Shown here: piece by piece, positions 36,331 through 54,699 of the stretch
Layout of the letters: every line of letters starts with the position of its first letter
Position numbering within the stretch: position 1 is the first letter of the stretch
Translations under genes and position numbers: made by a program
Notes under the pieces: model-generated
Databases searched by the model: none
What the model was told of the DNA's origin: nothing
The model's input: only the letters and a program-made list of their open reading frames with translations
DNA from: an uncultured Candidatus Saccharibacteria bacterium
GTDB lineage: Bacteria > Patescibacteriota > Saccharimonadia > Saccharimonadales > AWTP1-31
DNA length: 64,000 bases
Direction: 5' to 3'
Assembly: GCA_964634445.1 (NCBI GenBank)
Contig: CAZWJA010000001.1
Coordinates: 10,343-74,342, forward strand

Positions 36331-36405
36331 TCCCGGGTAGCTCAATGGTGGAGCAAGAAGCTGTTAACTTCGAGGTTGTCGGTTCGAGTCCGACCCCGGG
36401 AGCCA
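36331..36405 (+). tRNA. tRNA-Asn (anticodon GTT)
   Basis: Manual cloverleaf fold. Acceptor TCCCGGG/CCCGGGA. D-stem GCTC/GAGC. Anticodon loop CTGTTAA. T-arm GTCGG-TTCGAGT-CCGAC. Encoded G-CCA. Confidence 0.85.
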
Positions 36406-36545
36406 GAGCAAGCAGTGAAAATCGCAGACCGGTTTCCAAGACCGAAAAGCACTTTCACTCCTTGCTCACCAAGGAAGTAAGATTGCCGATAACAAGGTTA
36501 CGATGTTGGAACCACCAGGAATGGTGGTTCTTTCATTTTTACCTC
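36399..36545 (+). repeat. Repeat unit R1: tRNA-Asn 3' end plus an about 140-nt structured downstream region
   Basis: A long-range stem (36406-36420 with 36453-36467) and a terminal hairpin plus T-run (36508-36540). A homologous copy R2 lies at 57247-57385. An internal partial copy lies at 36584-36623. Confidence 0.6.
36508..36540 (+). terminator. Rho-independent terminator downstream of tRNA-Asn
   Basis: GGAACCACC-AGGAAT-GGTGGTTC hairpin followed by TTTCATTTTT. Confidence 0.6.
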
Positions 36546-36663
36546 TGTTATTCAGTTATAACCGCGACTTGTCCAGCCCGAAGGAAGCAAGCAATGAAAA
36601 AACAGACCTGGTTCCTAGACCCGTCCTTTTACTGATTCAAAGAAAAAATGCGAGCTAGCTATG

Positions 36664-37527
36664 TCAGCTGAGACTGTGCATGAAACTTTTAATTTGCAAA
36701 TTCACATAATCGGGCTTCTCAGCCATCAATAAATGACCAGTGCCTTCCACAATATGAGTCCGTGTTGGTTGAAGGCGTTCGCAAAATTGCAGCCCATTTG
36801 CTAAAGGCAGAACACGATTTTGTTGACCCCAAAAGACCATGGTAGGAGGTAAGTGTGTTGGTCGAGCAAAATCATGACTGAATTTATTAAACGAAGATAG
36901 GCCTCTCTTCAGGTTTAGTCGTGACATTGTTTGTGTTGGGCTATGGGCCTCTTTACTCTCCGCTAGAAAAACTGGATCTGTAGGATTAGGCAGGGCCGCA
37001 TAGTTGGTGCGCACGGCGGTCGTAATCACACCAGGAATGTACTCAATCGTTTTCTGTGTAGCCACGTGAATCGGTTTTAAAAAACCAGGTAACGGTAAGC
37101 TCGCTAAGCGCACCAAAGGTGTCATCATGTCATGACCACCACAGAGATTAAACAAAATCAAAGCCTTCAGCCGTGAAGAATTTCGAATGCCATACTCAAG
37201 GGCGGCCGCTGCACCCACACAGTTGCCAACTAATGTAACATTCTTTAGACTGAGTTTCGATAAAATTTCATCAGTCATTTGAGTATAAAAATCGAGACCG
37301 TAAGTTACATTTGGACGATCCGAAGCACCGCACCCTAGCATATCAAAAGCAAACACACGATATTTTTTAGCGAAATACTGTATTTGATAGTGCCAGATCC
37401 AGTGCCCACTGCCACCATTGTGCAGAAACAGCATTGGCTCACCAGATCCGACCTCTATGTATTTAACAGTTCCTGAACCCAGGGATAGGCTTTTCATAAT
37501 AAAGACAGTATACATTCGGGAATTCAT
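36664..37527 (-). CDS. Alpha/beta-fold hydrolase (Cys in the nucleophile elbow: GNCVG)
   Basis: HNGGSGH oxyanion-hole-like N-terminus, nucleophile elbow LVGNCVGAAAAL, C-terminal His (GTGHLLM). Confidence 0.55.
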   Translation of the reverse strand: MNSRMYTVFIMKSLSLGSGTVKYIEVGSGEPMLFLHNGGSGHWIWHYQIQYFAKKYRVFAFDMLGCGASDRPNVTYGLDFYTQMTDEILSKLSLKNVTLVGNCVGAAAALEYGIRNSSRLKALILFNLCGGHDMMTPLVRLASLPLPGFLKPIHVATQKTIEYIPGVITTAVRTNYAALPNPTDPVFLAESKEAHSPTQTMSRLNLKRGLSSFNKFSHDFARPTHLPPTMVFWGQQNRVLPLANGLQFCERLQPTRTHIVEGTGHLLMAEKPDYVNLQIKSFMHSLS

Positions 37528-37637
37528 GATTACGTAAAAAGTTTTCTCTGAGTAGACCCATTTTCCAGATAATCGTTTATACTTACAATTAATAAAGTTC
37601 TGTTACCCTCGGTAGACTAAACTGCCCTAATCTAAAT

Positions 37638-38423
37638 ATGTCCAATCAAACTAGTACAATTGCCAAGAAAATGCACGGATCCGGCCAGCCGGTTGTATTG
37701 CTCCATGGGTTTGCACACTCGCACAAGTATTGGAACAAAGTGGTTAGACATATGCCACATGACAAATTTCATATCATTACACCTGATAGCATCGGATTTG
37801 GGATGTCGGACAAACCCACAGAACTAAACTATGACATCGATGACCATTCTGAAGAACTCGTAAGGGCACTCTTGAAACACGTTAGTCAGCCAGTAATTCT
37901 AGTTGGACACTCCATGGGCGCAATGATAGCGCTTAGAATCGCCAAACATCACCCACATTTAGTTCAAAAGCTTATTTTGATAAATCCTCCTCTTTTCACA
38001 AGTCCAGAGCATGCAAGACGCGTGATAATGAGTAAGCTGCCGCTACTTTACAAGGCTTATATTGGGAGACTAGGCATAGTTATCCACTCCATGAGAGATA
38101 GCTGGTTCATGGACTTTCTGCATACAACTTTATTGGCAAAAAATCCCGACTTGAGAGATATTGTCACTGATTACTTAAGTCACACGAGACGATCATTCAT
38201 CTATACCTTGCGAAACACCATATTTGCATACTCAATGTACGATGATCTCCGAGAACTCAAGACAAATACAAAATACATCTACTGCCCCAATGACCCATTC
38301 TACGACCCGGCATCACTTGCTTTCTTCAGTAAATATCCGAATATGCAAGCAGTTAAAATCTCTGGTGGCCACAAGATACCCTATGTTAATGCAGAACAGG
38401 TCGTTCATGAGATATGCGCTTAA
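37638..38423 (+). CDS. Alpha/beta-fold hydrolase
   Basis: HGFAHS oxyanion region, GHSMG nucleophile elbow, C-terminal GGHKIPY catalytic His region. Confidence 0.65.
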   Translation: MSNQTSTIAKKMHGSGQPVVLLHGFAHSHKYWNKVVRHMPHDKFHIITPDSIGFGMSDKPTELNYDIDDHSEELVRALLKHVSQPVILVGHSMGAMIALRIAKHHPHLVQKLILINPPLFTSPEHARRVIMSKLPLLYKAYIGRLGIVIHSMRDSWFMDFLHTTLLAKNPDLRDIVTDYLSHTRRSFIYTLRNTIFAYSMYDDLRELKTNTKYIYCPNDPFYDPASLAFFSKYPNMQAVKISGGHKIPYVNAEQVVHEICA

Positions 38424-38441
38424 AAAGGATGGGGGCTAAGT

Positions 38442-39011
38442 ATGCAACCATATCTGATCTTATTTTTCTTAAACTTCCTTGAAGGGTCTGTTATTACTCT
38501 TGGTGCTGGCCTATCTGCGCAGGCTACCCATCTTGACTACTGCTTAGCCCTACTGACTCTCATCACCGCCGACATCGTCAGTGATCTTTTCTACTATGGT
38601 TTGGGTAGATTTGGTGGGGGTATCCTTCACACAAAGTATGCAAGAATAATTGGCGTCACAGAGCATCATCTAGATTTGGTCGAAAGCTATTATTCGAAGC
38701 ATGGTAAAATTACGCTTTTCTTTGCTAAAATGTCTGACCTTCTAGCAATGCCAGCAGTGATCATTGCTGGTGCTATAAAGATGAAGCTCCGCGACTATAT
38801 TGCAGTCAGTGTTGTGACGTCCATTCTTAAAGCCGTTCTATTATTCTCAGCCGGATACTTACTCGGGAACAGTCTAGGCCGTAATGGTTTAGTGCTTATA
38901 CAAAATATGCTTAGCGGTCTATTTATTCTAATTTTAACAATCTTTATATTCCGCTATTTCTATGTCAAGATTAGACAAGATAAGGCTCTCAAAAGGAAAC
39001 TACGTCAGTAA
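38442..39011 (+). CDS. Small polytopic membrane protein (DedA/VTT-like?)
   Basis: Four to five hydrophobic segments. The family assignment is weak. Confidence 0.35.
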   Translation: MQPYLILFFLNFLEGSVITLGAGLSAQATHLDYCLALLTLITADIVSDLFYYGLGRFGGGILHTKYARIIGVTEHHLDLVESYYSKHGKITLFFAKMSDLLAMPAVIIAGAIKMKLRDYIAVSVVTSILKAVLLFSAGYLLGNSLGRNGLVLIQNMLSGLFILILTIFIFRYFYVKIRQDKALKRKLRQ

Positions 39012-39013
39012 TT

Positions 39014-39781
39014 ATGCAGCAAACTAAGCCATTATTTTGGGTTGTTATACCGTTCTTCAACGAGCAAAAGCTCATACTAAAAACTCTTGAGGCTTTAGAG
39101 CAGCAGAGTGATACAGATTTTGCGATGGTGTTAGTAAATAATATGAGCACCGACAAGTCCCCTCAAATTGTTCGGACATTTATTAAGCAACACCCAAGAC
39201 TAAATATCCATTTAATTAACGAGAAGCAGAAAGGCACTGGTGCAGCATCTGACACTGGCTTTCGTTATGCGATTCAACACGGCGCAACCATTGTTGCAAG
39301 AACTGATGCAGACGCATTGCCGTGCAAAGATTGGGTGCGTTTACTCAAACATGAGTTTGCAACCGGGGCACGTTTTGTTGGTGGGAGGTTGGCAGCACGA
39401 ACCGATGAACCAAACTACCGTTGGTATGACGGCTTCATCACCGCTATATTCGTGCGTATTTTTGAGCCTGCGCCGCGTATTTTCTACAAACGCCCAGGTC
39501 AACGCTATCCACTCTTTATGGTACCGGGTTTAAACATGGCTATAGACGCAAAATTATACTTGGAGGTGGACGGCTTTCCACGCTCAAGCATTGACGATAC
39601 AGACGAGGATCTTGAGCTACACCTAAAGGTTTGTCAGATTATTGATAAGTCACAAGCTCGCCTTAATAAGCAAGCACTCGTCTACGGCTCTATTCGGAAA
39701 GCGAAATCAATGGGTTATCTGAATATCATACTGTGGTACTGGAGTCGTAAACATAAACCGGACGTTATTGATGTCCGCTAG
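39014..39781 (+). CDS. Glycosyltransferase family 2
   Basis: VVIPFFNEQ, LVNNMSTDKS, DADALP (DxD). Confidence 0.7.
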   Translation: MQQTKPLFWVVIPFFNEQKLILKTLEALEQQSDTDFAMVLVNNMSTDKSPQIVRTFIKQHPRLNIHLINEKQKGTGAASDTGFRYAIQHGATIVARTDADALPCKDWVRLLKHEFATGARFVGGRLAARTDEPNYRWYDGFITAIFVRIFEPAPRIFYKRPGQRYPLFMVPGLNMAIDAKLYLEVDGFPRSSIDDTDEDLELHLKVCQIIDKSQARLNKQALVYGSIRKAKSMGYLNIILWYWSRKHKPDVIDVR

Positions 39782-40355
39782 TGCGCCAATTGCTTACATC
39801 TGTGTTATTCCAAAGACTGAGGTACATAACTATGTATCCACTCCTATGCCAGCTCATTACGAGGGTACGATTCGAGATGAATCAAGAATGGGCTATGCAA
39901 TTCTTGCAAATATATTAAAAAACAAATTCGGTGTCACCCATCATGTTAAAAATATACTCGCGAAGCCAAATGGCAAGCCTTACATTAAAGATAGTTCGAT
40001 TTGTTTTAACATTGCATACAGTCAGGATTATGTAGCTTGTGCAGTCGGCCAGCAAGAGATCGGTATTGACATTGAGCAGCCAAGAGAACTACACCCTAAA
40101 TTAATACTCAAACTACTGACCCCCGAAGAAATTGATGATGGCGTGGATCCGCTTCGGGCGTGGGTCATAAAGGAAGCATACAGCAAACTACTCGGCGCTG
40201 GACTGGCACTTGGTTTCGCATCAATATCAGTTGACACAATACTAGGCAGACAGCCACATTTTATTGTCCCGAACAAACTGTATACCTGTGCAGTTTTTTA
40301 CGAGAATCCAAACACAATGGTAAAGATCCAATATACACTTGAGGATACATTATGA
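39768..40355 (+). CDS. 4'-phosphopantetheinyl transferase (Sfp-type)
   Basis: PPTase motifs FNIAYSQDYVACAV, GIDIEQ and WVIKEAYSKLLG. Confidence 0.75.
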   Translation: MMSASAPIAYICVIPKTEVHNYVSTPMPAHYEGTIRDESRMGYAILANILKNKFGVTHHVKNILAKPNGKPYIKDSSICFNIAYSQDYVACAVGQQEIGIDIEQPRELHPKLILKLLTPEEIDDGVDPLRAWVIKEAYSKLLGAGLALGFASISVDTILGRQPHFIVPNKLYTCAVFYENPNTMVKIQYTLEDTL

Positions 40356-41332
40356 AGCGAGTACTGATAACAGGCGCAACGGGCTTTTTGGGCAGTTACA
40401 CAGTTGCAGAGTTTAGTAAGCACGGGTATTACGTTATAGCGACTGGGCGCGATCAGGAAAAGCTTGCTAAGCTCAAACCTGCCGCAAACGAGACAATCAC
40501 ATGTGACTTGAGCAACCTAGCTAAAAAACGCGTGAAGGCGGATGTGGTCGTGCATATTGCAGCACTATCTACTATCTGGGGCAGTTGGGCCGACTTTTAT
40601 AATGCGAACGTCCTTGGTACACAACAGGTTATCTGGTTTTGCCAGAAAAACGCTATCAAAAAATTAGTGTTTATATCATCACCAAGTATTTATTCAAGCA
40701 GACAGCATCGCCTAAATATTCACGAATCAGCGTATAACCCGAAAAATAAGCTTAATAACTACATTCGCTCAAAAATTGCTGCCGAGAAATTGGTGCAAGC
40801 GGCCAATAATAACAACCTGCATACTGTCATTTTAAGACCACGTGGCATTTTCGGAATCGGCGATACCAGCATCGTGCCACGTTTAATCAAGGCGAATAAC
40901 ACCATTGGCCTACCGCTTATTAATAATGGCCAAAACCAGGTTGATATGACCTGTGTTGAAAATGTGGCCCACGCCATACGCTTAGCCGTGGAGTCTCAAA
41001 AAGCGAACGGACACACATACAATATTACCAACGGTGAGCCGCGCTCCTTTAAGGACATTACCGAGAAACTCCTTAAAGATATCAACCAAAAACCTCGCTA
41101 CAAACGCTTATCTCCAAACAGTCTCTATGCCATGGCTACAGTTTTGGAGCATGCCTATCGTTTGTTACGTATACCTAACGAACCAGCCATAACAAGATAT
41201 ACTGTGTGTACGCTGGGTTATTCGCAGACACTTGATATATCTAGTGCAAGGAAAGACTTAGGCTATGCACCGATAATTAGTCTTAACGCAGGACTTAAGA
41301 AATATGCCGACAACTACACAAAAAATAACTAG
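40352..41332 (+). CDS. NAD-dependent epimerase/dehydratase family (extended SDR)
   Basis: N-terminal ITGATGFLGS Rossmann motif and YIRSK (YxxxK) catalytic motif. Confidence 0.75.
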   Translation: MKRVLITGATGFLGSYTVAEFSKHGYYVIATGRDQEKLAKLKPAANETITCDLSNLAKKRVKADVVVHIAALSTIWGSWADFYNANVLGTQQVIWFCQKNAIKKLVFISSPSIYSSRQHRLNIHESAYNPKNKLNNYIRSKIAAEKLVQAANNNNLHTVILRPRGIFGIGDTSIVPRLIKANNTIGLPLINNGQNQVDMTCVENVAHAIRLAVESQKANGHTYNITNGEPRSFKDITEKLLKDINQKPRYKRLSPNSLYAMATVLEHAYRLLRIPNEPAITRYTVCTLGYSQTLDISSARKDLGYAPIISLNAGLKKYADNYTKNN

Positions 41333-42116
41333 TGTGCAGTATTACAACTGTGGGAATTGTGTGAACAGGCTTGGCTTTGTATATCGAAATCAGAGTTTTC
41401 AAAAACGCGTGTTCCCGTCAGGGGTATTTTTGATTAAGCATTCAAAGTATGGTTACGTATTGTTTGACACAGGCTATTCGCTCAATATCTACAAAACAGG
41501 TTGGCGTGGTTGGCTCTATCGACTATTAAACCCGACTCATGTCAGCCGGGAGGAAGAGATTGACGTCCAGCTTAAAAAAGATGGTATTACACCAAAAGAC
41601 ATTCAATATGTAGTTTTATCACATCTCCATCCAGACCACATTGGCGGTTTAAAATTCTTTAACCAGAGCCAGTTTATTATCACTAAAGATAGCTACCGCG
41701 CATATCAACATCCACACACTACAGATCTTCTTTTTCCGGCACTGCTGCCAAATTGGTTTGAGTCACACATCCTGAAGTTAGAAGATATGCAGCTAAAGCT
41801 AGCTACGCACACTGGGTTGGCTGGCTACGATTTATTTGGCGATGGCACGCTAATTCTCACACCGCTCGAAGGTCACACAAATGGCCATTTAGGGGCATTT
41901 ATCCCTGGTGAATTATTGCTAGCCGGCGATGCTTGTTGGGGCGAAGATCTCATGAAGCCGTCAAGAAACATGCGTCGTATTATTAACCTAATTCATCATG
42001 ACCACGGAGCGTTTTTGAAGACACTACATACACTGAGCCGCCTTAAGCAGCAAGGAGTAAGGTTATGCTTCAGCCATGACCAATATGAACAGAAGGAACT
42101 TCTGCGTGCAAAATAA
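41304..42116 (+). CDS. MBL-fold metallo-hydrolase
   Basis: HLHPDHIGG (HxHxDH) zinc-binding motif. Confidence 0.65.
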   Translation: MPTTTQKITSVQYYNCGNCVNRLGFVYRNQSFQKRVFPSGVFLIKHSKYGYVLFDTGYSLNIYKTGWRGWLYRLLNPTHVSREEEIDVQLKKDGITPKDIQYVVLSHLHPDHIGGLKFFNQSQFIITKDSYRAYQHPHTTDLLFPALLPNWFESHILKLEDMQLKLATHTGLAGYDLFGDGTLILTPLEGHTNGHLGAFIPGELLLAGDACWGEDLMKPSRNMRRIINLIHHDHGAFLKTLHTLSRLKQQGVRLCFSHDQYEQKELLRAK

Positions 42117-43401
42117 ACTCACAACACTCCGTTATTTTGCAGAAACACGCTGGTTCAAGAAATTTAATTCGCGGAAAGAACTCCAGACATTTCAGGAAAA
42201 AATGGTCATAAAACATATGGCATTTCTTAAAGATAATTCACCTTTTTTCGCTAAGCTTCCCCTGATTACGAATATGGATGAGTTCAAACAGCTGCCGCTC
42301 ATGGACAAATCTGTGATGATGAAGGATTTTAATGCCATGAATACACTTGGGTTAGATAAAGACAGGGCGTTAAAAATCGCTATCAAAAGTGAGAAGTCAC
42401 GAAACTTCACGCCTACTTATAACAGCATATCGGTTGGTCTTTCGTCAGGAACAAGTGGACACAGGGGCTTATTCTTAGTAAGCGACAAGGAGCGTAGTGC
42501 TTGGGCTGGCGCGGTACTCGGTAAATACCTACCACCAGGGAAGCCATTTGGTCACCGTATTGCGTTCTTTCTGCGCGCCAACAACAACCTGTATGAAACT
42601 ATTAACTCTCGTTTTATTACGTTTCGTTATTTTGACATCTATAAGGATATGTCTAAAAACCTTAACGAGCTTGCAAGTTATCAACCATCTATAATTGTCG
42701 CCCCACCGTCAGTACTTAGTGTTATAGCCAATCAACTTGAAACAGGAGAATTATCAATACATCCCCATAAGATTATCTCTGTAGCCGAAGTATTAAACCC
42801 TCGAGATGAATTGCGTTTTAAAAAAGTATTTAGCCAGGGTATTATTTTTCAGGCCTATCAATGTACTGAGGGCTTTCTAGCCCATACCTGCCAGCAAGGC
42901 TCGCTGCACCTTAATGAAGACACTGTCTACGTTGAGAAGGAATTTCTAGACGCAAAGCGGTTTGTGCCCATAATTACCGATTTTCGGCGACGTTCGCAGC
43001 CAATCATACGTTATCGACTAAACGACATACTGGTTTTATCAAAAAAGCATTGCTCTTGTGGCAGCGCTATGACAGCTATTGAGCGCATCGAAGGTCGTGA
43101 AGATGATATTTTCCTATTCAAAAACCAAGCCGGTGAAACCGTCCAAGTATTCTCGGACATGATTGGACGCTGTATGCTCTATGTTAAAAATATAAAAGAT
43201 TACCGAGTAGTACAGACCGATTACACAAAATTAGTTATCCATCTGGATGATATAAATGCAAACACTAAGCAGGCGATAAGACACGAGATCACTAAACTTG
43301 CCCAAAAACTATCCTTTAAGACGCCAGAATTGGAATTTGTGGCCTATGAGCTCGATTTGAGTAGAAAATTAAAGCGAATTGAGAGACAATTTAGTAAATG
43401 A
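42076..43401 (+). CDS. Adenylate-forming enzyme, PaaK / coenzyme F390 synthetase-like (ANL superfamily)
   Basis: LSSGTSGHRG P-loop-like AMP-binding motif, typical of PaaK/F390-synthetase/LuxE-like acyl-adenylate ligases. Confidence 0.6.
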   Translation: MTNMNRRNFCVQNKLTTLRYFAETRWFKKFNSRKELQTFQEKMVIKHMAFLKDNSPFFAKLPLITNMDEFKQLPLMDKSVMMKDFNAMNTLGLDKDRALKIAIKSEKSRNFTPTYNSISVGLSSGTSGHRGLFLVSDKERSAWAGAVLGKYLPPGKPFGHRIAFFLRANNNLYETINSRFITFRYFDIYKDMSKNLNELASYQPSIIVAPPSVLSVIANQLETGELSIHPHKIISVAEVLNPRDELRFKKVFSQGIIFQAYQCTEGFLAHTCQQGSLHLNEDTVYVEKEFLDAKRFVPIITDFRRRSQPIIRYRLNDILVLSKKHCSCGSAMTAIERIEGREDDIFLFKNQAGETVQVFSDMIGRCMLYVKNIKDYRVVQTDYTKLVIHLDDINANTKQAIRHEITKLAQKLSFKTPELEFVAYELDLSRKLKRIERQFSK

Positions 43402-44339
43402 ATAGTATAAGAAATTGCCGTATTGCAGGCTATGGTACGTATTTACCTAAGCAAACCGTAGAGTTTGAGGGGCAGACACGCTATCGAATATCTGGAGACG
43501 AAGATCAACTATCCATGGCTGTAGCTGCGTGCAAACAGGCTCTCGAAACTGCAAAACTAGATATTAATAATATCGACTGCATCGTCTCTGCCAGCGCTGT
43601 CGGCATCCAACCTATCCCATCTACGGCAGCACTGATCCATGAACAGCTTGCCCTCGGTACTAGTATTCCCGCACTCGACATCAACACAACGTGCACCAGC
43701 TTTCTAACGTCGTTAGACACAATGTCATACCTTGTTGCAGCTGGTCGCTATAAAAATGTTCTTATAGTTTCCAGTGAGGTTGGCTCGCTAGGCTTAAACC
43801 CTAAGCAACGGGAAAGCTATGAGCTATTCTCTGATGGTGCTGCAGCAATTGTGTTATCAACCCACACTGAACCATCCCAGGGAATTATTGCCAGTATGCA
43901 GTCAACGTGGTCTGAGGGCGCACATTCAACTGAAATCAGAGGTGGATTAACTGGCTTTCATCCAAAAAATTACAGTGAAGAAACCAAAGAAGATTACATG
44001 TTTGATATGGATGGTCGAACGGTTTTGCGTATTGCCGCAACGCATTTGCCAGAAATGTTTAACGAATTTATGACTAATTACGGTATTGGCTTTAAAGATG
44101 TTGACGTTATCATCCCACACCAGGCGAGCCGCGCACTGGATATGATCATGCGGCGTATGGGAGCACCGACCGGGAGCTACATTAACTGGGTACCGGAATA
44201 CGGCAATATGGTTTCAGCGTCAGTGCCATTTATTCTTTGTAAGCTTCTTGCAGACGGTAAGCTACAGAGAGGCGATAAAGTGTTATTATGTGGGACAGCC
44301 GCAGGTCTCACTGCGAATATTGTTGTGATGGAGGTTTAA
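43398..44339 (+). CDS. 3-oxoacyl-ACP synthase III-like (FabH/KAS III family)
   Basis: Active-site Cys context NTTCTSF, then HQASRAL (His) and GNMVSASVP (Asn). Collinear with FabH. Confidence 0.75.
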   Translation: MNSIRNCRIAGYGTYLPKQTVEFEGQTRYRISGDEDQLSMAVAACKQALETAKLDINNIDCIVSASAVGIQPIPSTAALIHEQLALGTSIPALDINTTCTSFLTSLDTMSYLVAAGRYKNVLIVSSEVGSLGLNPKQRESYELFSDGAAAIVLSTHTEPSQGIIASMQSTWSEGAHSTEIRGGLTGFHPKNYSEETKEDYMFDMDGRTVLRIAATHLPEMFNEFMTNYGIGFKDVDVIIPHQASRALDMIMRRMGAPTGSYINWVPEYGNMVSASVPFILCKLLADGKLQRGDKVLLCGTAAGLTANIVVMEV

Positions 44340-44340
44340 T

Positions 44341-44580
44341 ATGTTAGAAGATGTTCAAGAAATTATTTACAAAGAGTTTGATATTGAAATAGATAAGCTC
44401 ACTCCTGAGGCAAATCTCAGGAATGATCTACACATTGACAGTATGGCGGCAGTGAATTTGTCTTTTGAGATTGAAGATCGTTTCAAGATTAAAGTTACCG
44501 ACGAAGAACTTGCTGGTCTTACTACTATTAACGACATTTTAAAGCTTATCGAATCTAAAGGTGTATCAGGAAAAAACTAA
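44341..44580 (+). CDS. Acyl carrier protein
   Basis: 79 aa with the phosphopantetheine attachment motif DLHIDSMAAVNL (DSx). Confidence 0.8.
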   Translation: MLEDVQEIIYKEFDIEIDKLTPEANLRNDLHIDSMAAVNLSFEIEDRFKIKVTDEELAGLTTINDILKLIESKGVSGKN

Positions 44581-45511
44581 CCGACCAGTCTTCTTATACC
44601 CCGGGCAAGGTGAATTGCAGGTTGGTATTGGTCGTGACATTTATGATCATAGTCAAGCTGCCCGCGAAGTATTTGATGTTAACCCGGAGCTAAAAGAATT
44701 ATGTTTTAGTGGTCCTCACGAAACACTCAACGATCCATATAATAATCAAGCTGCTAACTTTTTAGCCTGGATGGCCATAAGCGCAGCACTGGGAGAAGTA
44801 AATATACAGCCCGGAGCATTAGCGGGACAAAGCCTCGGTGAGTATGGCGCACTCTGCAGTGCTGGCTCCTTTAGTATTAAGGACGCTCTACCGATGCTAA
44901 AAGAGCGAGCAAGGCTTATGACCGAGCTGATTCCAGCTGATAGTGGCATGCATGCCATACTAGGCCTAGGCGCTACTACAGTCGAAACCCTCTGTCAGAA
45001 AGTATCCACAGCCGAAAGACCTTGCCAGGTAGCTATTTACAGTACAGCTGACAGGAATGTCATCACCGGCAATAAAACTGCTGTTACAAAATGTGCCGAA
45101 CTATGTGCTGAAGCTGGTGGCAAAACAATGCCTGTACGAGTTGCACGTGCTTTTCATTCATCACTAGGGCAACCAGCTAAAGAAGCGTTTGCCGAAGTCT
45201 TAAAAGACTTTCCAATTGCACAACCAAATCGTCCTGTCTACTACAATCGTGATGGGTCGAATGAATGTGAAGATATTGCTGGCATGTTGGCCGACCAGCT
45301 CATGAGCCCAGTCTACTTAGTAAAAGTAATCCAAAACTTGCTTGACGATGGCTACAGACAATTTATTAAAATCGGACCTGGTGGATTCTTTGGGGATGCT
45401 GTACGAACAATTGCGCACAATCAGAATATTGATATACAGATCTACAGTGTTGAGTCATTCGAAGATATTAACCAATTAGTCTTGAGGTTGAAAGAAGATG
45501 CGTATGCTTAA
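44561..45511 (+). CDS. ACP S-malonyltransferase-like acyltransferase (FabD family)
   Basis: GQGELQVG N-terminal motif, GQSLGEY active-site Ser motif, ARAFHS (His). Confidence 0.75.
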   Translation: MYQEKTNRPVFLYPGQGELQVGIGRDIYDHSQAAREVFDVNPELKELCFSGPHETLNDPYNNQAANFLAWMAISAALGEVNIQPGALAGQSLGEYGALCSAGSFSIKDALPMLKERARLMTELIPADSGMHAILGLGATTVETLCQKVSTAERPCQVAIYSTADRNVITGNKTAVTKCAELCAEAGGKTMPVRVARAFHSSLGQPAKEAFAEVLKDFPIAQPNRPVYYNRDGSNECEDIAGMLADQLMSPVYLVKVIQNLLDDGYRQFIKIGPGGFFGDAVRTIAHNQNIDIQIYSVESFEDINQLVLRLKEDAYA

Positions 45512-46745
45512 GCGACGCGTTGTGATTACGGGCATTGGAGTAGTGTCAGCCATCGGTAATGACACAAAATCTTTTTGGGATAGTATCAAAATGGGTACGT
45601 GTGGCATTGATTCTATTACCTCGTTTGATGCTACTAAGTCACCAGTTAAGCTGGCTGCTGAGATTAAGTCACTCGACAGCGAACAGTATTTTGAAGCACG
45701 AGACATCAAACATAACGCACGCTTTATGTTACTGGCGCGTATAGCGGCGCAAGAAGCCTACCACATGAGCGGCTTAGGGAACGTCAGTATTGACCGTGAT
45801 CGTTTTGGCGTGTTTGTTTCTTCAAGCATTGGCGGGATTGAAGTGTTGGAAGCCAACCAGCTGGCATTTATGCAGACAGATTCTCCGCGTGTTTCTCCAT
45901 ATCTAATCCCAAGCACACTTGTTAACTTAGCATCAGGTGCAATTGCCATCGACGTTCAGGCACATGGCAGCAATATGGCAGTAGTAACAGCCTGCGCTAG
46001 CGGTGCCAATTCCATCGGTGAAGCTTTTCTGAAGATTCAGCAAGGTTCACACGACGTTATTCTAGCTGGTGCGAGTGACGCAGCCATTACACCGCTATCA
46101 CTAGCAGGTTTCGCAGCTATGCGCGCTATGCATACTGGTGACGATCCGAACCGAGCCTGCATACCATTCGATAAGGAACGCAGTGGCACCGTTATGGGTG
46201 AAGGAGCAGGCATATTGGTACTTGAAGATCTTGAACACGCTCTAAAACGTAAGGCAACTATCTTGGGTGAGATTGTAGGGTACGGCACAAACTGCGACGC
46301 GTTTAGCATCACCTCACCCGAGCTTGAGGGTACGACCATTAGCAAAGCAATGCATAACGCAATTGATAGCGCCTCTGTCAGGATTGAGGAAATTGACTAT
46401 ATAAATGCCCACGGTACCGCAACGGTATTAAACGACAGTACCGAGAGCTTGGCTATCCAAAAAGTCTTTGGAGCACATACTAAAAATGTCTTAGTCTCTT
46501 CCACAAAGTCCATGACCGGCCATACACTTGGTGCGAGCGGAGCAATTGAAGCCATTGTGTGCTTGAAAGCATTGCAGGAGAACTTTGCGCCCCCTACGAT
46601 TAATTACCAGTCAGCTGACCCGAAGTGTGATTTAAACCTTGTAGTAAACAAGGGGGTTGATAAAGAGCTAAACCTCGTTTTATCTAACTCGTTCGGCTTT
46701 GGTGGGCATAATGCCAGTTTAATTTTCAAAAAATGGCAAGTATAG
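45498..46745 (+). CDS. 3-oxoacyl-ACP synthase I/II-like (FabF/KAS II family)
   Basis: Active-site Cys context VVTACASGANSIG, then NAHGTAT and GHTLGASGA His motifs. Confidence 0.85.
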   Translation: MRMLKRRVVITGIGVVSAIGNDTKSFWDSIKMGTCGIDSITSFDATKSPVKLAAEIKSLDSEQYFEARDIKHNARFMLLARIAAQEAYHMSGLGNVSIDRDRFGVFVSSSIGGIEVLEANQLAFMQTDSPRVSPYLIPSTLVNLASGAIAIDVQAHGSNMAVVTACASGANSIGEAFLKIQQGSHDVILAGASDAAITPLSLAGFAAMRAMHTGDDPNRACIPFDKERSGTVMGEGAGILVLEDLEHALKRKATILGEIVGYGTNCDAFSITSPELEGTTISKAMHNAIDSASVRIEEIDYINAHGTATVLNDSTESLAIQKVFGAHTKNVLVSSTKSMTGHTLGASGAIEAIVCLKALQENFAPPTINYQSADPKCDLNLVVNKGVDKELNLVLSNSFGFGGHNASLIFKKWQV

Positions 46746-48391
46746 ACACCCCCTGTAACATATCTACACTTAAGGCGATGCTGCGCCAAAGTACTGAGCG
46801 CTATGCTAATCAGACAGCATTTCATCTCGCAGACGGTTCTCATATTACCTACAAGGAATTTGCCGAGGATATAGACGCACTTGGTACTGCACTCATTAAC
46901 GCCAAAAGAAAACCAAAACGCATCGGTATTATTGGCGCGAACTCCTACGAATGGGGGCTTGCGTACCTTGCAACTATGAATGGTGCTGGTATTGCTGTAT
47001 CACTGGATAAAGAATTAACTAAACGAGAGCTGCTCGATTCTGTTGAACGAATCAAGCTTGATACAATTTTTTACTCTGATGATATCGCTCACAAAGTCCT
47101 AGCTACAAAGAAACAAGGCATTATTAAAACCTATATATCCATGTCACCCGACTCTAAAGAACAAACCATACAAGCACTCATTGAGCTCGGAAAACAAGCA
47201 CCAAAGAGAAACAGGCGTGCTTACCAGCAGATTAAAATTGATCCCGATGCGCTAGCGGCATTACTTTTTACATCAGGGACTACATCTCAATCAAAAATTG
47301 TCATGCTTTCACACAGGAATATTACAGCTGACCTTATACACGGCACGGCACATTTCAATCTGAGTCCAAGTGACCGTTTCTTATCAATTCTGCCAATGCA
47401 TCACATGTTTGAATGCGTAGCAGGTTTTTTGGCACCTTTGTACTCAGGTAGCTCAATCTATTTCAGCCAAGGTATTCGCCACATTGGACGAGAATTTAAG
47501 GAGCAGAAACCAACGGTGGTCATTTGTGTTCCTCGTGTCATCGAAGCCCTTTCTGGTAAGATCTGGAAAGGCATTCGTGAACAAGGTAAGGAACAGATTG
47601 TTCGAAGACTAATGTCTACTACTAATACTTTAGATAGGTTTGGGCTGCATATAAAACGGAAAGTTTTTGCAAAAGTTCACCATGAGCTCGGTGGAAATAT
47701 TCGCTTCTTCCTGAGTGGGGCAGCTAGTCTCAATTTAAAAACAGCCGAAGATATGACTCAGCTTGGTTTTACCATTTTTCAAGGCTACGGACTGACTGAA
47801 TGTTCACCCGCAGTTGCTATTTCCTATTATGGGAATAATGACCCTGACTCAGTTGGCCCGCCGTTAGCAGAAACGGATATATACATAGATAGGCCTAATG
47901 CTGATGGTAATGGAGAAATACTCATAAAAGGCCCGCAGGTCATGCTCGGCTATTATCAGAACAAAGCAGCCACCAAGCAAGTCATGCACAATGGCTATTT
48001 CCGAACAGGTGATATAGGCCAGATTAAGCAAAATGGCAGTCTAAAAATTATTGGACGCCTCAAAAATGTAATTGTTACAAGTGGCGGAAAGAAAATATAT
48101 CCTGAGGAATTGGAGTCTTTGTTATTGCAAAGCCCGGCTATAAAAGACGTCGTGGTTCATGGAGTAGAACACAACCATGGTATGCAGATCTGTGCGTCGG
48201 TAGTCCTTGCCGAAAATGAAAGCCCTACACAGAAACGGCAACTTGAAAAGACGGCAAGATCCCATATCAAGGCCATCAATAATAATCTTGCGAAATACGA
48301 ACAGATACACACCATCAAAATCCGAAACACCGATTTTGTGAGAACATCTACACTCAAAGTAAAAAGACACCTAATAAGTGCCTCTCAATAA
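46733..48391 (+). CDS. Long-chain acyl-CoA synthetase / fatty acyl-AMP ligase (AMP-binding, FadD-like)
   Basis: FTSGTTSQSKIVMLSH (AMP-binding motif I), GYGLTE, YFRTGDIG, GRLKNVIVTSGGKKIYPEELE. Confidence 0.8.
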   Translation: MASIDTPCNISTLKAMLRQSTERYANQTAFHLADGSHITYKEFAEDIDALGTALINAKRKPKRIGIIGANSYEWGLAYLATMNGAGIAVSLDKELTKRELLDSVERIKLDTIFYSDDIAHKVLATKKQGIIKTYISMSPDSKEQTIQALIELGKQAPKRNRRAYQQIKIDPDALAALLFTSGTTSQSKIVMLSHRNITADLIHGTAHFNLSPSDRFLSILPMHHMFECVAGFLAPLYSGSSIYFSQGIRHIGREFKEQKPTVVICVPRVIEALSGKIWKGIREQGKEQIVRRLMSTTNTLDRFGLHIKRKVFAKVHHELGGNIRFFLSGAASLNLKTAEDMTQLGFTIFQGYGLTECSPAVAISYYGNNDPDSVGPPLAETDIYIDRPNADGNGEILIKGPQVMLGYYQNKAATKQVMHNGYFRTGDIGQIKQNGSLKIIGRLKNVIVTSGGKKIYPEELESLLLQSPAIKDVVVHGVEHNHGMQICASVVLAENESPTQKRQLEKTARSHIKAINNNLAKYEQIHTIKIRNTDFVRTSTLKVKRHLISASQ

Positions 48392-48410: not shown

Positions 48411-49688
48411 TTATGCATAAAATTCCAGCTTTGATTCTCTAATTTGCAGTTTTGTTTCTATTCCTGCAGTTAATGCCGTTTTCTCGCTCTCTGTGCCATT
48501 TGTCAGCACATATCGGGCATATTCTACAAACGGATCGTCAAGCCGCTGGTCGACCTTGTAGTGCGTGAATAATGTTTTTGTAACATACATGTGCTTGTCA
48601 ACTTTGGCTCGTAATTTATCCGATATTTTGATCTGTTCATGATGTTGCTCGATAAAGTCCTGAAGTAACACACATAAATTGTCTTCGTTGACATATTTTT
48701 CGTTACAGTTCGGATCTTTGCGTCGAGTGCAGTTGTAGTAAACAAATCGTTTTATATCGCCACTTTTGAGCGTCTTAAATTTATCTTGGGCCGTAATATC
48801 TGCATCGCACTGTCCACACTTGAACAACCCCCGAAATGCGAAAGTCTTTGAGCCCCAAACCCCTTTGTTAACACCCCTAGTTTCTTGTACAAGGTCAAAC
48901 AGTTCCTTTGAGATAAGTGGCTTGTGCGCCCCGTCATACCAAGGCGCATCCGGCGCCTCAGGATATTGGAATCTGCCGTAGTAGAACGGTGTGCTTAGAA
49001 TCACAAGAATTTGGCTTACACTAATAGGTCTACCGGAACGGTTAGTAAATCCTTGCTCATCAAGCCAGGCCTTTAGCCTACGACCACTCCAGCGCTCATA
49101 TCCCGCCTTTTGAAACGCCTCACGAATCAGATCAGCTCGGTCAGGATCAAAGATTATGTCGTTGACACCTCCGAAAGCCCTGTTCATATAGCCGAGCGGG
49201 GCTACACCGGGCCGCCAACCCATCTCACATTTGGTACGAATACCACGCTTGACGTTGATGCTTTTATTGTCGTTCTCGAGTTTGGCTTGCGAGCAGAGGA
49301 TCATGAGCAAAAATTTCTCATTCGGACTATTGGTAAATGTCTGTGAATAAGTTCGAATATGTAGTAGCTTGTGTTGGTCCATTAGATCGACGACCGCACC
49401 CAAGTCTCCAGCATTTCGACTTAGACGATCTGGTGCCCACGTCAGGATTGCGTTGTATTCATCGTTTGCTAAACCAGCCAGCATTTTGTTATATACGGGT
49501 CGTTTACCTGAATCTTTGGCTGAATGACTCTCTTGCAATTCACAAACAACATTCAGACCTTCATTTTCGGCTAAGGCTCGCATCTCGGCGAGCTGTGAGT
49601 CGATAGACATAGCCTGGCGCTCATCGGATTCGCTCGACTTCCGAGCATACAGGCAGTATTTGAGTGTTGGTTGATTATTGTCCAGCAT
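48411..49688 (-). CDS. Large serine recombinase (resolvase/invertase N-domain + recombinase domain + zinc ribbon)
   Basis: N-terminal catalytic region CLYARKSSESDERQAMSIDSQ. C-terminal Cys cluster CGQCDADI...YYNCTRRKD. About 75% identical to the truncated copy at 58117..58779. Confidence 0.8.
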   Translation of the reverse strand: MLDNNQPTLKYCLYARKSSESDERQAMSIDSQLAEMRALAENEGLNVVCELQESHSAKDSGKRPVYNKMLAGLANDEYNAILTWAPDRLSRNAGDLGAVVDLMDQHKLLHIRTYSQTFTNSPNEKFLLMILCSQAKLENDNKSINVKRGIRTKCEMGWRPGVAPLGYMNRAFGGVNDIIFDPDRADLIREAFQKAGYERWSGRRLKAWLDEQGFTNRSGRPISVSQILVILSTPFYYGRFQYPEAPDAPWYDGAHKPLISKELFDLVQETRGVNKGVWGSKTFAFRGLFKCGQCDADITAQDKFKTLKSGDIKRFVYYNCTRRKDPNCNEKYVNEDNLCVLLQDFIEQHHEQIKISDKLRAKVDKHMYVTKTLFTHYKVDQRLDDPFVEYARYVLTNGTESEKTALTAGIETKLQIRESKLEFYA

Positions 49689-49794: not shown

Positions 49795-50379
49795 CTATTG
49801 AAGGCTTACTTTAATACCACCCGAGTAGGCGCTATCATGCAATTCAGCGACAGTTGGCGTTACATCTTTTGGTACATCAAAGACGATAGTACCTTCCACG
49901 CTATTGCCAGGATTGATATCGCTGTACCAACTACTACCTTGTGGGGCAGCGTAGAGGGTTGCAGTATCGTCAGCTGAGTATTCCTTATTAGCTGCATCTA
50001 GCAGCTTCTGATTAGCTGAGAATAGGCTCTGCTTTTCGTTACCGATGTTCTTAACACTCACATTCAGCAGACAGTATTGACCCTGTGCTGTTTTGGTCAA
50101 GTATTGGTTGGTGCCGACTGAAGCTTCGCCACACTTGATGCTTTTGACTATGAATTCGAACTTACCGTCTCGAACGGCTGCACCGATCTTAGCCGCTTCA
50201 GCTTTTGCTTCGGTTTTGGCTTCTTGCTTGTTGTTGCTTGAGCCTGTCGATGACTTGCTACCACCACCCGCCGCACTCGCTACTATACCTATAGCTACAA
50301 AAGCCAAGATTACGGTTAATATTTTATGTCTTTTGAACCAGTTTGCTTTTTGGTCTGCCATATTTCCTCCTTCTGGCAT
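49795..50379 (-). CDS. Secreted/membrane-anchored DUF4352-like protein
   Basis: N-terminal TM, Ser/Gly/Lys-rich linker, then a C-terminal beta-rich domain with the FVVKS..G...V.V.V.N.G pattern of DUF4352. Confidence 0.5.
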   Translation of the reverse strand: MPEGGNMADQKANWFKRHKILTVILAFVAIGIVASAAGGGSKSSTGSSNNKQEAKTEAKAEAAKIGAAVRDGKFEFIVKSIKCGEASVGTNQYLTKTAQGQYCLLNVSVKNIGNEKQSLFSANQKLLDAANKEYSADDTATLYAAPQGSSWYSDINPGNSVEGTIVFDVPKDVTPTVAELHDSAYSGGIKVSLQ

Positions 50380-50589
50380 TTAATTAATGTCTCAGGAGGC
50401 TGGCCTATATATTAAAAGCGACAGCCACGCTGGACTGTCTAGGACCCAAACAAGCGCTTTCACGCCTATTCTTTTTTACGTAGCTGCCGCTTTCATGGCA
50501 TGAAGCTACGCATATAATGCTCGCTGTTAACGCTTGCTTGAATCCTAGACATGTTCCATTGTACTGCCAACAGATAAAGAAACCTAGCC

Positions 50590-53799: not shown

Positions 53800-53887
53800 A
53801 ACGTTCTCCTTTAATGGTTATGTCTCGCAATATAAAAGGCCTCAGCCGTTAGGCGTGAGGCGAAAAATGGACGAAAAAGGGTCTAAA

Positions 53888-54523: not shown

Positions 54524-54699
54524 TTCAATACCTCTGCTATATATTTTACCAAAGATAACTTTTTTACTTCTTATGGTATCTGGTAAATAATACTACACCT
54601 TTTAGCTAGAAAACACCAGATATAGCGGAGTATAATACTGCCAGAACGCTATAAGGTAACAAAAACACCTAAAACACGTTCACTACAACCAGGATACTT

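Follow-up and report, generated by a model that had tools for sequence, protein, structure and literature searches.

Several known systems come close to the locus described here. OleABCD and the lipstatin (LstABCD) and nocardiolactone (NltABCD) systems use fatty-acyl thioester substrates and combine a thiolase-fold condensing enzyme with an OleD-family NAD(P)H reductase, an ATP-dependent adenylate-forming enzyme and a hydrolase. The head-to-head pyrone ketosynthases MxnB and CorB (with PpyS/PyrS) act on carrier-bound beta-ketoacyl substrates and belong to large trans-AT PKS clusters. In the PqsABCDE alkylquinolone operon, which uses FAS-derived acyl chains, an acid-activating ligase and FabH-like condensing enzymes stand beside an MBL-fold hydrolase, the thioesterase PqsE. 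Beta-keto lipids also arise without a reductive cycle, both in the barley Cer-cqu beta-diketone pathway, where a hydrolase intercepts 3-ketoacyl-ACP, and from type III PKS alkylpyrone synthases (M. tuberculosis PKS18, Azotobacter ArsBC), which combine a long-chain starter with malonyl units.

We analysed a 64,000-nucleotide stretch of DNA from an uncultured Candidatus Saccharibacteria bacterium (the window), which carries the following 13-gene cluster.

36664..37527, minus strand: alpha/beta hydrolase 1 (Pfam/NCBIfam)
37638..38423, plus strand: alpha/beta hydrolase 2 (abh2; Pfam/NCBIfam), opening the plus-strand operon
38442..39011, plus strand: DedA/VTT-family membrane protein, weak UptA-like match
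39014..39781, plus strand: GT2 glycosyltransferase, overlapping the PPTase start by 14 nt
39768..40355, plus strand: Sfp-type 4'-phosphopantetheinyl transferase (PPTase), helper; GIDIEQ, WVIKEAYSK
40352..41332, plus strand: extended SDR, OleD-like beta-keto reductase homologue, core gene 1
41304..42116, plus strand: MBL-fold hydrolase, closest to AttM/GcL-type lactonases, core gene 2
42076..43401, plus strand: TIGR02304 F390-synthetase-related (F390rel), PaaK-fold adenylate-forming enzyme, core gene 3
43398..44339, plus strand: KAS III of FabH/MxnB/CorB type, C99-H241-N270 triad, core gene 4
44341..44580, plus strand: acyl carrier protein (ACP), helper; AcpP-like, Ser34 in DSM
44561..45511, plus strand: FabD-like malonyl-CoA:ACP transacylase (AT), helper; GQS91LGE, R118, AFHS
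45498..46745, plus strand: FabF-type KAS II, helper; Cys-His-His intact
46733..48391, plus strand: ANL-family acyl-CoA(/ACP) ligase (FadD), helper; long-chain FACS-like in NCBIfam

ORFs, Pfam and NCBIfam agree on this gene content. All 13 domain assignments and every quoted motif hold, including the PPTase, KS and AT assignments of the original prediction, which had however counted eleven co-directional plus-strand genes where there are 12 of 13. From abh2 through FadD (37638 to 48391) neighbouring genes overlap or lie no more than 18 nt apart, so that this stretch forms one operon-like block. Alpha/beta hydrolase 1 accompanies the block in loci L008/L097 and L096.

The heart of the cluster is the SDR-MBL-F390rel-KAS III block, a conserved functional core found across phyla for which we found no published function in the literature. 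The original prediction did not recognise this block; it had named a FabH-like KAS III, an ACP, a FabD-like acyltransferase and a FabF-like KAS II as the core, and of these only the KAS III belongs to the conserved block. The SDR (GATGFLGS; Y137xxxK141) has OleD as its best family in all five lineages tested (146-240 bits), followed by HpnA (73-138 bits) and GalE (51-78 bits), and a dedicated keto-reductase homologue is thus present, although its score of 220 is far under the 580 set as equivalog cutoff for OleD. Its earlier assignment as a sugar epimerase was rejected, as OleD (2-alkyl-3-oxoalkanoate reductase) outscores both other families throughout. The MBL hydrolase (HLHPDH; H107xH109xD111H112) has lactonases of the AHL and delta-lactone type as its closest characterised relatives. 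The F390rel enzyme scores 537 bits against a TIGR02304 cutoff of 252 and carries the motif SSGTSG; its predicted structure (pLDDT 87) has the fold of PaaK, BT_0428 and NatL2, and its start likely lies near 42106 (the database copy has 431 aa). A profile of the KAS III family scores 260 bits on MxnB, 243 on CorB, 234 on FabH and about 103 on OleA, and the KAS III shares an insertion with MxnB/CorB, its closest solved relatives along with PpyS/PyrS. Its Ile73 occupies the position of the Glu that serves as catalytic base in OleA, PpyS and NocG (PMC9486936). As the lead of MxnB/CorB over FabH is modest, the profile scores leave a plain FabH-type reaction equally possible.

The locus resembles each known system only in part. 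Compared with OleABCD, the KAS III resembles FabH/MxnB and has no catalytic Glu, the adenylating enzyme is of PaaK/F390 type rather than OleC, the hydrolase has an MBL fold where OleB is an alpha/beta hydrolase, and the cluster is ACP-dependent and glycosyltransferase-associated. MxnB and CorB share the Cys-His-Asn triad but serve large clusters; here the operon is minimal, with four genes, and its KAS III, nearly as similar to ordinary FabH, accompanies a reductase, an MBL enzyme and a ligase. The resemblance to PqsABCDE is one of logic only, since there is no anthranilate logic here, the MBL enzyme is lactonase-like and not PqsE-like, and a reductase and glycosyltransferase are present. For Cer-cqu and the type III PKSs the likeness is likewise confined to chemical logic, their enzymes coming from different families (type III PKS, alpha/beta hydrolase).

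Among the best 80 GTDB loci from species representatives, the SDR-MBL-F390rel triad was found wherever the sequence is complete, and KAS III adjoins it in all lineages except the loci of Corynebacterium MAGs (four of the 80) and the truncated contig L012. Carriers of the core include oral streptococci, Microbacterium and Fusobacterium, as well as 674 of 5,426 complete E. coli genomes, and the core is plasmid-borne in Bacillus, Paenibacillus, Pontibacillus, Ketogulonicigenium and Pseudomonas. Saccharibacteria account for a handful of these 80 loci, with their copies falling into two separate clades; the cluster is not a core trait but an accessory island of rare occurrence.

In most Gram-positive and Saccharibacterial loci a lipid-type glycosyltransferase lies next to the core. 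Its family differs between lineages: Saccharibacteria have GT2 or GT4 (GT2 being conserved upstream of the core in clade A), while GT4 occurs in Corynebacterium (MGlcDAG-synthase-like), Microbacterium and Jonesia, GT1 in Streptococcus (macrolide-GT-like), and GT21 in Fusobacterium and Enterococcus. This association suggests that the core product is a glycolipid. Proteobacterial core loci have no adjacent glycosyltransferase, and glycosylation may therefore be a lineage-specific decoration. Alternatively, the GT2 and the DedA protein, which may be a flippase for lipids or polyprenyl phosphate, could serve some envelope-glycan function with no relation to the core beyond its place on the island.

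The remaining enzymes (PPTase, ACP, AT, FabF and acyl ligase) accompany the core only in Saccharibacteria and some reduced Firmicute MAGs and are always embedded within the four-gene core operon, while hosts with a known fatty-acid synthase of their own carry the core alone. We consider them accessory helpers, presumably restricted to hosts lacking FAS II. They are bona fide homologues of type II FAS components (FabD, FabH, FabF, AcpP, AcpS), with malonyl-type motifs in the AT and an AcpP-like ACP. The PKS-like label of the original prediction lacks phylogenetic support: the KS is a housekeeping-type FabF, scoring 540 bits against an equivalog cutoff of 494 and matching B. subtilis FabF (419 bits) over actinorhodin KS (266 bits); FabF proteins of Bacillus and Streptococcus are its closest relatives. 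The best solved relatives of the acyl ligase are MatB malonyl-CoA synthetases. Unlike type II FAS, the kit has an Sfp-type rather than AcpS-type PPTase, is borne on a mobile island inside the operon of another pathway, and lacks FabG, FabZ/A and FabI. The annotated helper loci L001/L002, L003/L004, L088 and L096/L097 contain no KR, DH or ER, and domains of the adh_short/KR, FabA/FabZ hot-dog, enoyl reductase and ACC types are absent from the scanned window ORFs of at least 110 aa (the scan covered ORFs other than those of ATP-synthase alpha and beta, with PHROGs as the sole library for three prophage ORFs). The predicted absence of FabG, FabZ/A and FabI from the window is borne out among these ORFs, as is the description of a self-contained, ACP-dependent specialised-lipid cluster. 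The helper set lacks the AT in locus L014. The helper kit comes with or without acetyl-CoA carboxylase, whose genes are inserted together with biotin ligase in L003, L013, L015 and L020. Neither the cluster nor the window encodes an ACC to supply malonyl-CoA, which counts against the flow proposed below.

The best explanation, which as a whole we judge to have about an even chance of being right from sequence comparison, is that a serine-recombinase island carries the 13-gene segment as its cargo, and that this cargo consists of the four-enzyme core and a portable kit replacing a missing FAS II. In most bacteria the core would draw upon FAS II intermediates; here the helper kit is read as the putative source of malonyl- and 3-oxoacyl-ACP. 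In step 1, a scavenged host-derived fatty acid would be activated by the ligase, the PPTase would yield holo-ACP and the AT malonyl-ACP, and in step 2 FabF would condense acyl-ACP with malonyl-ACP to 3-oxoacyl-ACP, where the chain would halt because there is no dehydratase or enoyl reductase. These two steps rest on well-established family functions; we infer steps 3 to 6, the order of which is guesswork. The KAS III would carry out a second Claisen condensation of the beta-keto intermediate with a second acyl chain or malonyl-ACP, giving a branched or di-keto acyl product (step 3), and the OleD-like SDR would reduce the beta-keto group to a hydroxyl (step 4). The MBL enzyme may release the thioester or open a lactone, and the PaaK-like enzyme may convert the carboxylate to acyl-AMP for lactonisation or ester transfer (step 5), with the adjacent GT2 then adding a sugar to the product and DedA perhaps aiding its membrane crossing (step 6). 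The end product would be a glycolipid or lactone lipid, non-canonical and partly reduced, with a role in the envelope or in host interaction rather than a bulk membrane fatty acid. As originally predicted, beta-keto or beta-hydroxy groups are probably retained in it, and its glycosylation is likewise probable. Saccharibacteria, parasites that are presumably poor in fatty-acid synthesis, would then probably make one special lipid themselves, likely a sugar-linked one.

Other readings of the same genes seem less probable. In an Ole-like beta-lactone or olefin pathway, which we think unlikely, the KAS III would produce a 2-alkyl-3-oxo acid by head-to-head joining of two acyl chains, the SDR would reduce this acid, the PaaK-like enzyme would act as a non-homologous beta-lactone synthetase, and the MBL or alpha/beta hydrolases would open or decarboxylate the lactone. 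The enzyme classes do correspond one for one and OleD is the top SDR family in every lineage tested, yet the SDR misses the equivalog cutoff, the F390rel enzyme lacks homology to OleC, and the KAS III is remote from OleA and has Ile73 in place of the catalytic base. Both alpha/beta hydrolases give weak haloalkane-dehalogenase-type matches, as OleB would, but the OleB model itself gave no match. Corynebacterium, where 2-alkyl-3-oxo acyl chains are made by Pks13, has dropped KAS III while retaining SDR, MBL and F390rel, in keeping with such a pathway. It is also improbable that the product is an alkyl-alpha-pyrone or lactone signal, for which a 3,5-dioxo or 2-acyl-3-oxo chain made by the ketosynthases would lactonise (compare MxnB, CorB, PpyS and the type III PKS alkylpyrones), with the MBL lactonase tuning or recycling the signal. 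A triketide or dialkylpyrone would require exactly FabF and KAS III without KR, DH or ER, and the insertion shared with MxnB/CorB and the lactonase-like MBL enzyme fit; but the margin over FabH is small, the SDR and adenylating enzyme would have no obvious role, no receptor or regulator gene is conserved beside the core, and the glycosyltransferase association favours a structural glycolipid.

That association, together with DedA (UptA-like) and GT2 in the same operon, would also suit the acylation of an envelope glycan or glycolipid, in which the KAS III-like or PaaK-like enzyme puts a short beta-hydroxy or beta-keto acyl group on the sugar of the adjacent glycosyltransferase. CerJ-type KAS III acyltransferases and O-antigen N-acyl modification cassettes offer precedents, and the PaaK-family enzymes NatL2, AjiA1 and ClxA form esters and amides. 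We nevertheless find this quite improbable, since the condensing triad of the KAS III is complete, the proteobacterial core does without a glycosyltransferase, and in E. coli the neighbours of the core are lipid-modifying (PAP2, a fatty-acid hydroxylase family protein and a desaturase). A salvage route supplying fatty acids to membrane phospholipids appears quite doubtful too. Here the ligase, ACP and PPTase would turn host fatty acids into acyl-ACP for elongation by FabF and KAS III, with reductive enzymes encoded outside the cluster. The housekeeping character of FabF and ACP agrees with this, and recycling of host lipids has been reported in Patescibacteria (PMC12455944), but FabG, FabZ and FabI are missing from every annotated helper locus and the scanned window ORFs, the helpers always sit inside the core operon, and the island is a rare accessory one.

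As to the proposed island, its boundaries and mobility genes are as follows.

36331..36405, plus strand: tRNA-Asn (GTT), from ARAGORN, Rfam and alignment
36399..36624, unstranded: left imperfect direct repeat of about 226 nt, proposed island boundary
48411..49688, minus strand: large serine recombinase (Resolvase, Recombinase and Zn ribbon by domain search)
49795..57050, unstranded: prophage remnant, within the repeat-bounded segment after the serine recombinase
57247..57473, unstranded: right imperfect repeat copy, proposed right boundary of a composite island
58117..58779, minus strand: second serine-recombinase gene, truncated, 72% DNA identity to 48684-48983

In the alignment the left repeat starts with the final 7 nt of the tRNA; it is about 77% identical to the right copy and contains a hairpin and the motif GACCTGGTTCC-N2-GAYCYGT, which has three matches against zero expected. 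The same cargo is carried by two different serine recombinases, and this, with the tRNA-adjacent insertion and flanking repeats, supports mobility of the island; the earlier view of a mobile element beside tRNA-Asn in a Saccharibacteria-type genome thus stands. The truncated second recombinase gene points to repeated integration at the site. The prophage remnant, which was overlooked in the original prediction, encodes DUF4352/phrog_806, large and small terminase subunits, a ParB-methyltransferase, a tail-like MBL-fold protein and unknown ORFs, and by sharing the repeat-bounded segment with the serine recombinase it indicates a composite island. In locus L011, too, a large serine recombinase adjoins FadD.

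At the centre of the thirteen-gene block at 36664-48391 lie four adjacent, co-directional genes (40352-44339) that encode, in this order, an extended SDR, an MBL hydrolase, an F390-synthetase-related adenylating enzyme (F390rel) and a KAS III. The same four genes occur together elsewhere, and form a conserved block. The surrounding genes are as follows.

36331-36405, tRNA-Asn, flanking the block
36664-37527, minus strand, alpha/beta hydrolase
37638-38423, plus strand, second alpha/beta hydrolase
38442-39011, plus strand, DedA/VTT protein
39014-39781, plus strand, GT2 glycosyltransferase
39768-40355, plus strand, Sfp-type PPTase
40352-41332, plus strand, extended SDR
41304-42116, plus strand, MBL hydrolase
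42076-43401, plus strand, F390rel (TIGR02304; full-length, 537.5 bits against the NCBIfam curated cutoff of 251.9)
43398-44339, plus strand, KAS III
44341-44580, plus strand, ACP
44561-45511, plus strand, FabD-like acyltransferase (AT)
45498-46745, plus strand, FabF (TIGR03150 fabF, 540 bits against an equivalog cutoff of 494)
46733-48391, plus strand, ANL acyl ligase
48411-49688, large serine recombinase, flanking the block

All thirteen open reading frames match the original prediction in their coordinates, each domain assignment was confirmed by Pfam and NCBIfam, with the PPTase, KS and AT assignments all supported by these searches, and every motif quoted for the proteins was found along with the expected catalytic residues. 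Twelve of the thirteen genes, rather than eleven, lie on the plus strand, and within 37638-48391 neighbouring genes overlap or stand at most 18 nt apart. FabG, FabZ/A and FabI had been predicted to be absent from both cluster and window, and no such protein, nor any resembling acetyl-CoA carboxylase, turned up when the window ORFs of 110 aa or longer, all but those of ATP-synthase alpha and beta, were scanned, three prophage ORFs being compared with PHROGs only.

The cluster shares with housekeeping type II FAS a KS that is a FabF orthologue by TIGR03150, but has no FabG-type ketoreductase, hot-dog dehydratase or enoyl reductase, in line with the claim that it does not serve housekeeping fatty-acid synthesis. 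The label "PKS-like" fared less well. The single KS is of the FabF type, nearest to the FabF proteins of Bacillus, Listeria and Streptococcus (419-390 bits, with B. subtilis at 419), and the actinorhodin KS comes well behind them at 266 bits. Domain searches with Pfam and NCBIfam found neither CLF nor cyclase domains in the cluster, nor is there a KS-alpha/KS-beta pair. Both the aromatic type II PKS and the aryl-polyene readings were rejected on the lack of CLF, KR and DH and on the FabF-type KS. By these criteria the cluster is neither housekeeping FAS nor an aromatic type II PKS, nor, judged in the same way (below), an Ole cluster, and we rate it as a FAS-derived specialised-lipid gene cluster.

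The SDR had been read as an epimerase/dehydratase. When SDRs from Saccharibacteria, Streptococcus, E. coli, Bacillus and Corynebacterium were scored against protein families, the best match in every lineage was OleD (2-alkyl-3-oxoalkanoate reductase; 146-240 bits, all far under the equivalog cutoff of 580 and hence a likeness at the level of homologues), followed by HpnA (73-138 bits) and GalE (51-78 bits), an order on which we reject the sugar-epimerase reading. Among solved structures, a decarboxylating sterol-4-alpha-carboxylate 3-dehydrogenase matches the SDR best. The MBL enzyme has an intact HxHxDH site, and its nearest characterised relatives are AttM/GcL-type lactonases and 4-pyridoxolactonase. 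The AlphaFold model of F390rel (pLDDT 87) has a PaaK-family AMP-ligase fold, with BT_0428, PaaK1/2, NatL2, AjiA1, ClxA and 2-hydroxyisobutyryl-CoA ligase as neighbours, from which we infer that F390rel would activate a carboxylate.

The KAS III retains Cys99-His241-Asn270. An N-terminal segment of about 18 residues is missing from this protein in Saccharibacteria, Streptococcus, Fusobacterium and Microbacterium and is kept in the module versions of Bacillus, E. coli and Pseudomonas. The equivalent stretch of FabH contains the CoA-adenine-binding residues Trp32 and Arg36, and its loss may point to the use of ACP-bound instead of CoA primers. In family profile scoring, MxnB (260 bits) and CorB (243 bits) are followed by Aquifex FabH (234 bits) and the OleA structures (about 103 bits); the margin of MxnB and CorB over FabH is small, and an insertion is common to the KAS III and these two head-to-head pyrone-forming ketosynthases. 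OleA has its catalytic Glu base some 25 residues ahead of the Cys, and PpyS and NocG also carry this base (PMC9486936); the KAS III has Ile73 at that position. Judged by these alignments and scores, the KAS III is FabH/MxnB-like, not OleA-like.

F390rel has 5,648 relatives at E<=1e-10 among the candidates scored, and we compared the DNA around it in 80 species-representative genomes as well as in several loci from metagenomes and plasmids. The core is carried by mitis-group and parasanguinis streptococci, Enterococcus, Microbacterium, Jonesia, Stomatobaculum and Fusobacterium vincentii, by megaplasmids of Bacillus mycoides, Paenibacillus and Pontibacillus, and by replicons of Ketogulonicigenium, Pseudomonas, Paracoccus, Ralstonia and Burkholderia. 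Its gene order is permuted in Bacillales and Proteobacteria, where KAS III comes first. Among complete E. coli genomes it is present in 674 of 5,426 (about 12%), including UPEC, ABU 83972 and NRG 857C. In these genomes it takes a seven-gene form, which in locus L006 lies between narI and purU in the order KAS III, SDR, MBL, F390rel, PAP2 phosphatase, sterol-desaturase-/fatty-acid-hydroxylase-family protein and acyl-CoA desaturase. Full-text literature searches returned no account of the module, its E. coli version included, or of the Saccharibacterial ACP/KS cluster; as comparators they yielded PMC9486936 and papers on MxnB and CorB. A phage-borne auxiliary gene was considered and rejected, as neither an F390rel relative nor the module was found in IMG/VR viral contigs; an anti-phage defence system was likewise rejected, since PADLOC gave no match to the core genes, GT2 or ligase.

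Comparison of these loci also suggests what the core consumes. Hosts known to possess FAS II have the four core genes alone. Among the loci compared, the complete helper set (PPTase, ACP, AT, FabF and ligase) is confined to Saccharibacteria (the window and loci L001/L002, L008/L097, L011, L014, L088 and L096) and one second group, comprising a Bacilli MAG, an Erysipelotrichaceae MAG, a MAG labelled Bacteroidaceae and the Saccharibacterial loci L018 and L020. In this second group accB, accC and accD/A are additionally inserted between ACP and AT, and a biotin ligase is also present in three loci (L003, L015 and L020). L014, from a Saccharimonadia MAG, departs from the full set in that AT is missing and the KS directly follows the ACP; a GT4, not a GT2, lies upstream of its PPTase. 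No annotated helper-carrying version has a FabG-type ketoreductase, dehydratase or enoyl reductase. The AT has malonyl-type motifs, and the ligase matches long-chain FACS (252 bits) and malonyl-CoA synthase (182 bits) in NCBIfam, with MatB malonyl-CoA synthetases as its best solved relatives. Most simply read, the core would require malonyl-ACP together with acyl- or 3-oxoacyl-ACP, and the helper genes would be a portable kit supplying both in hosts that presumably lack FAS II.

Four Corynebacterium MAG loci (L009, L010, L017 and L089) have GT4, SDR, MBL and F390rel without KAS III. Corynebacterium is not known to have FAS II, and its 2-alkyl-3-oxo acyl chains are made by Pks13; the absence of KAS III fits such a genus and offers a lead.

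In most loci from Gram-positive bacteria and Saccharibacteria a glycosyltransferase stands directly beside the core, and its family varies by lineage: GT2 in the Saccharibacterial group that includes the window, GT4 in Corynebacterium, Microbacterium, Jonesia and L014 (and, by weaker matches of 22-23% identity, in L018 and L020), a GT1 of macrolide-GT-like type in Streptococcus, and GT21 in Fusobacterium and Enterococcus, the latter with an additional GT1. Synthases of monoglucosyl-diacylglycerol and GlcNAc-phosphatidylglycerol are what the Corynebacterium GT4 resembles. Proteobacterial versions of the module have no glycosyltransferase. Since the glycosyltransferase has been replaced non-orthologously beside a constant core, the pattern argues that the product of the module, or its acceptor, is a glycosylated lipophilic molecule.

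Based on these assignments, it is possible to propose a route for the whole cluster. The ligase would activate a scavenged fatty acid, the PPTase would produce holo-ACP, and the AT would load malonyl-ACP for FabF to form 3-oxoacyl-ACP. KAS III would carry out a further Claisen condensation, either with malonyl-ACP or by joining two chains, the OleD-like SDR would reduce the beta-keto group, and the MBL and PaaK-like enzymes would release the acid and re-activate (or lactonise) it before the GT2 glycosylates the product, whose export may be assisted by DedA. Taken as a single claim from ligase to glycosylation, we consider this route evenly poised between right and wrong.

The cluster probably works by Ole-like or pyrone-like logic. 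An Ole-like route to a beta-lactone or olefin has the OleD-like SDR in its favour, but Ole pathways use an OleA-type thiolase with the Glu base, where the KAS III has Ile73. The ANL ligase and the two alpha/beta hydrolases, candidate counterparts of OleC and OleB, give generic FACS, MatB and dehalogenase-type matches and lie outside the conserved core. We think this route unlikely. An alkylpyrone or lactone signal, for which the MxnB/CorB likeness and the lactonase relatives of the MBL enzyme could be cited, seems to us a similarly poor prospect, the score margin over FabH being small. The adjoining glycosyltransferase could instead indicate acylation of a sugar in an envelope glycan or glycolipid; with proteobacterial modules free of any glycosyltransferase, we regard this as rather less probable still. 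Plain fatty-acid salvage has the housekeeping-type FabF in its favour and, against it, the lack of FabG, FabZ and FabI in the annotated helper-carrying loci; we give it equally little credence.

In a neighbour-joining tree of concatenated SDR, MBL and F390rel (994 columns, 300 bootstraps), the window, L008, L001 and L088 form a clade (100%) that groups with L014 and Corynebacterium at 76%, and L018 and L020 form another (100%), nested along with Stomatobaculum inside the clade of ACC-carrying Firmicute MAGs (97%). The Saccharibacterial copies came out as monophyletic in 0% of bootstrap replicates. With the copies in two clades, this simple distance tree therefore suggests at least two acquisitions by Saccharibacteria, and would place one of them near the Actinobacteria, the phylum of known Saccharibacterial hosts.

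The most far-reaching reading is this: that the core leads from FAS II intermediates, by a route so far undescribed, to a new class of lipid, partly reduced, branched or lactone-forming and usually glycosylated, common to oral streptococci, Actinobacteria, Fusobacterium, the B. cereus group and the E. coli carriers; that in FAS-less episymbionts this route became autonomous when fused to a stripped-down "mini-FAS" making only the beta-ketoacyl-ACP building block; and that Saccharibacteria acquired it on two or more occasions, one of them from a lineage close to their actinobacterial hosts. As a joint statement we advance this tentatively, and believe it somewhat more apt to fail than to hold. 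If true, it would represent the first case of ACP-dependent lipid synthesis in Saccharibacteria, a group usually portrayed as incapable of making fatty acids and reliant on the lipids of its hosts. For a transferable cluster to bring its own ACP, PPTase, malonyl transacylase and FabF solely to feed a specialised module would mean that reduced parasites can still build a bespoke lipid, one that may be important where epibiont and host meet. Many human-associated bacteria carry the four-gene core (mitis-group streptococci, uropathogenic-type E. coli and Fusobacterium among them), and as comparison with the Saccharibacterial and reduced-Firmicute versions suggests its input (malonyl-ACP and 3-oxoacyl-ACP, with no reductive cycle), its chemistry is directly testable.

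The original prediction also placed the cluster on a mobile element, a view strengthened by its insertion next to tRNA-Asn, the flanking repeats, the serine recombinase and the differing context of its relatives. We regard the lipid block as a putative integrative island mobilised by the large serine recombinase. An imperfect direct repeat of 226 nt (about 77% identity) lies at 36399-36624 and 57247-57473, the left copy starting in the last 7 nt, at the 3' end, of tRNA-Asn. Each copy contains a GC-rich hairpin and the motif GACCTGGTTCC-N2-GAYCYGT, which has 3 matches in the window against 0 expected by chance and may be a recombinase or att-related site; no credible Rfam match for an ncRNA was found in the repeat. 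In the bracketed 21 kb the lipid block and the serine recombinase are accompanied by a decayed prophage (49795-57050). It encodes both terminase subunits (large and small), a fusion of ParB with a DNA methyltransferase, a DUF4352/phrog_806 protein and, at 54700-55707, an MBL-fold ORF resembling a tail protein; neither capsid nor portal genes were recognised in it. Just outside the right repeat, a truncated serine-recombinase paralogue (58117-58779, minus strand; 72% DNA identity to 48684-48983) suggests repeated integrations at a tRNA-Asn hot spot. GC content is flat across the cluster (0.42-0.44), giving no compositional signal of an island, and a promoter and terminator scan did not rise above chance.

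Relatives of the island occupy varied sites. For a strain free of the island, an exact look-up of SmpB yielded only contigs shorter than 2 kb, which would not span an empty site. In L011, whose proteins are 94-98% identical, the same recombinase adjoins the ligase and a repeat copy lies 3 kb further on; in L096 all 13 genes of the block recur, but the serine recombinase lies on the opposite side and is a different one (52% identity). The block directly follows tRNA-Ser in L008/L097, is flanked by tyrosine integrases in L003, and stands in further, different contexts in L001 and L088. Protein identity between the window and L096 is 58-80% for the left genes and 88-96% for the right genes, and against L001 it is 93% for the GT2 and 52% for the PPTase. 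Because gene-by-gene identities of 36664-48391 with L001, L008 and L096 are mosaic in this way, they indicate that cluster variants have probably recombined among different Saccharibacteria.

Elsewhere in the window, a giant ORF of 2,060 aa (6542-12724, plus strand) probably encodes a surface protein; towards its C-terminus it has domains of the fibronectin-III and purple-acid-phosphatase N-terminal types. The body of the ORF at 4975-6426 (minus strand) is a D-Ala-D-Ala carboxypeptidase (Peptidase_S11); as listed, this ORF crosses a tRNA-Gln on the opposite strand (6351-6425), and its true start therefore lies further downstream.
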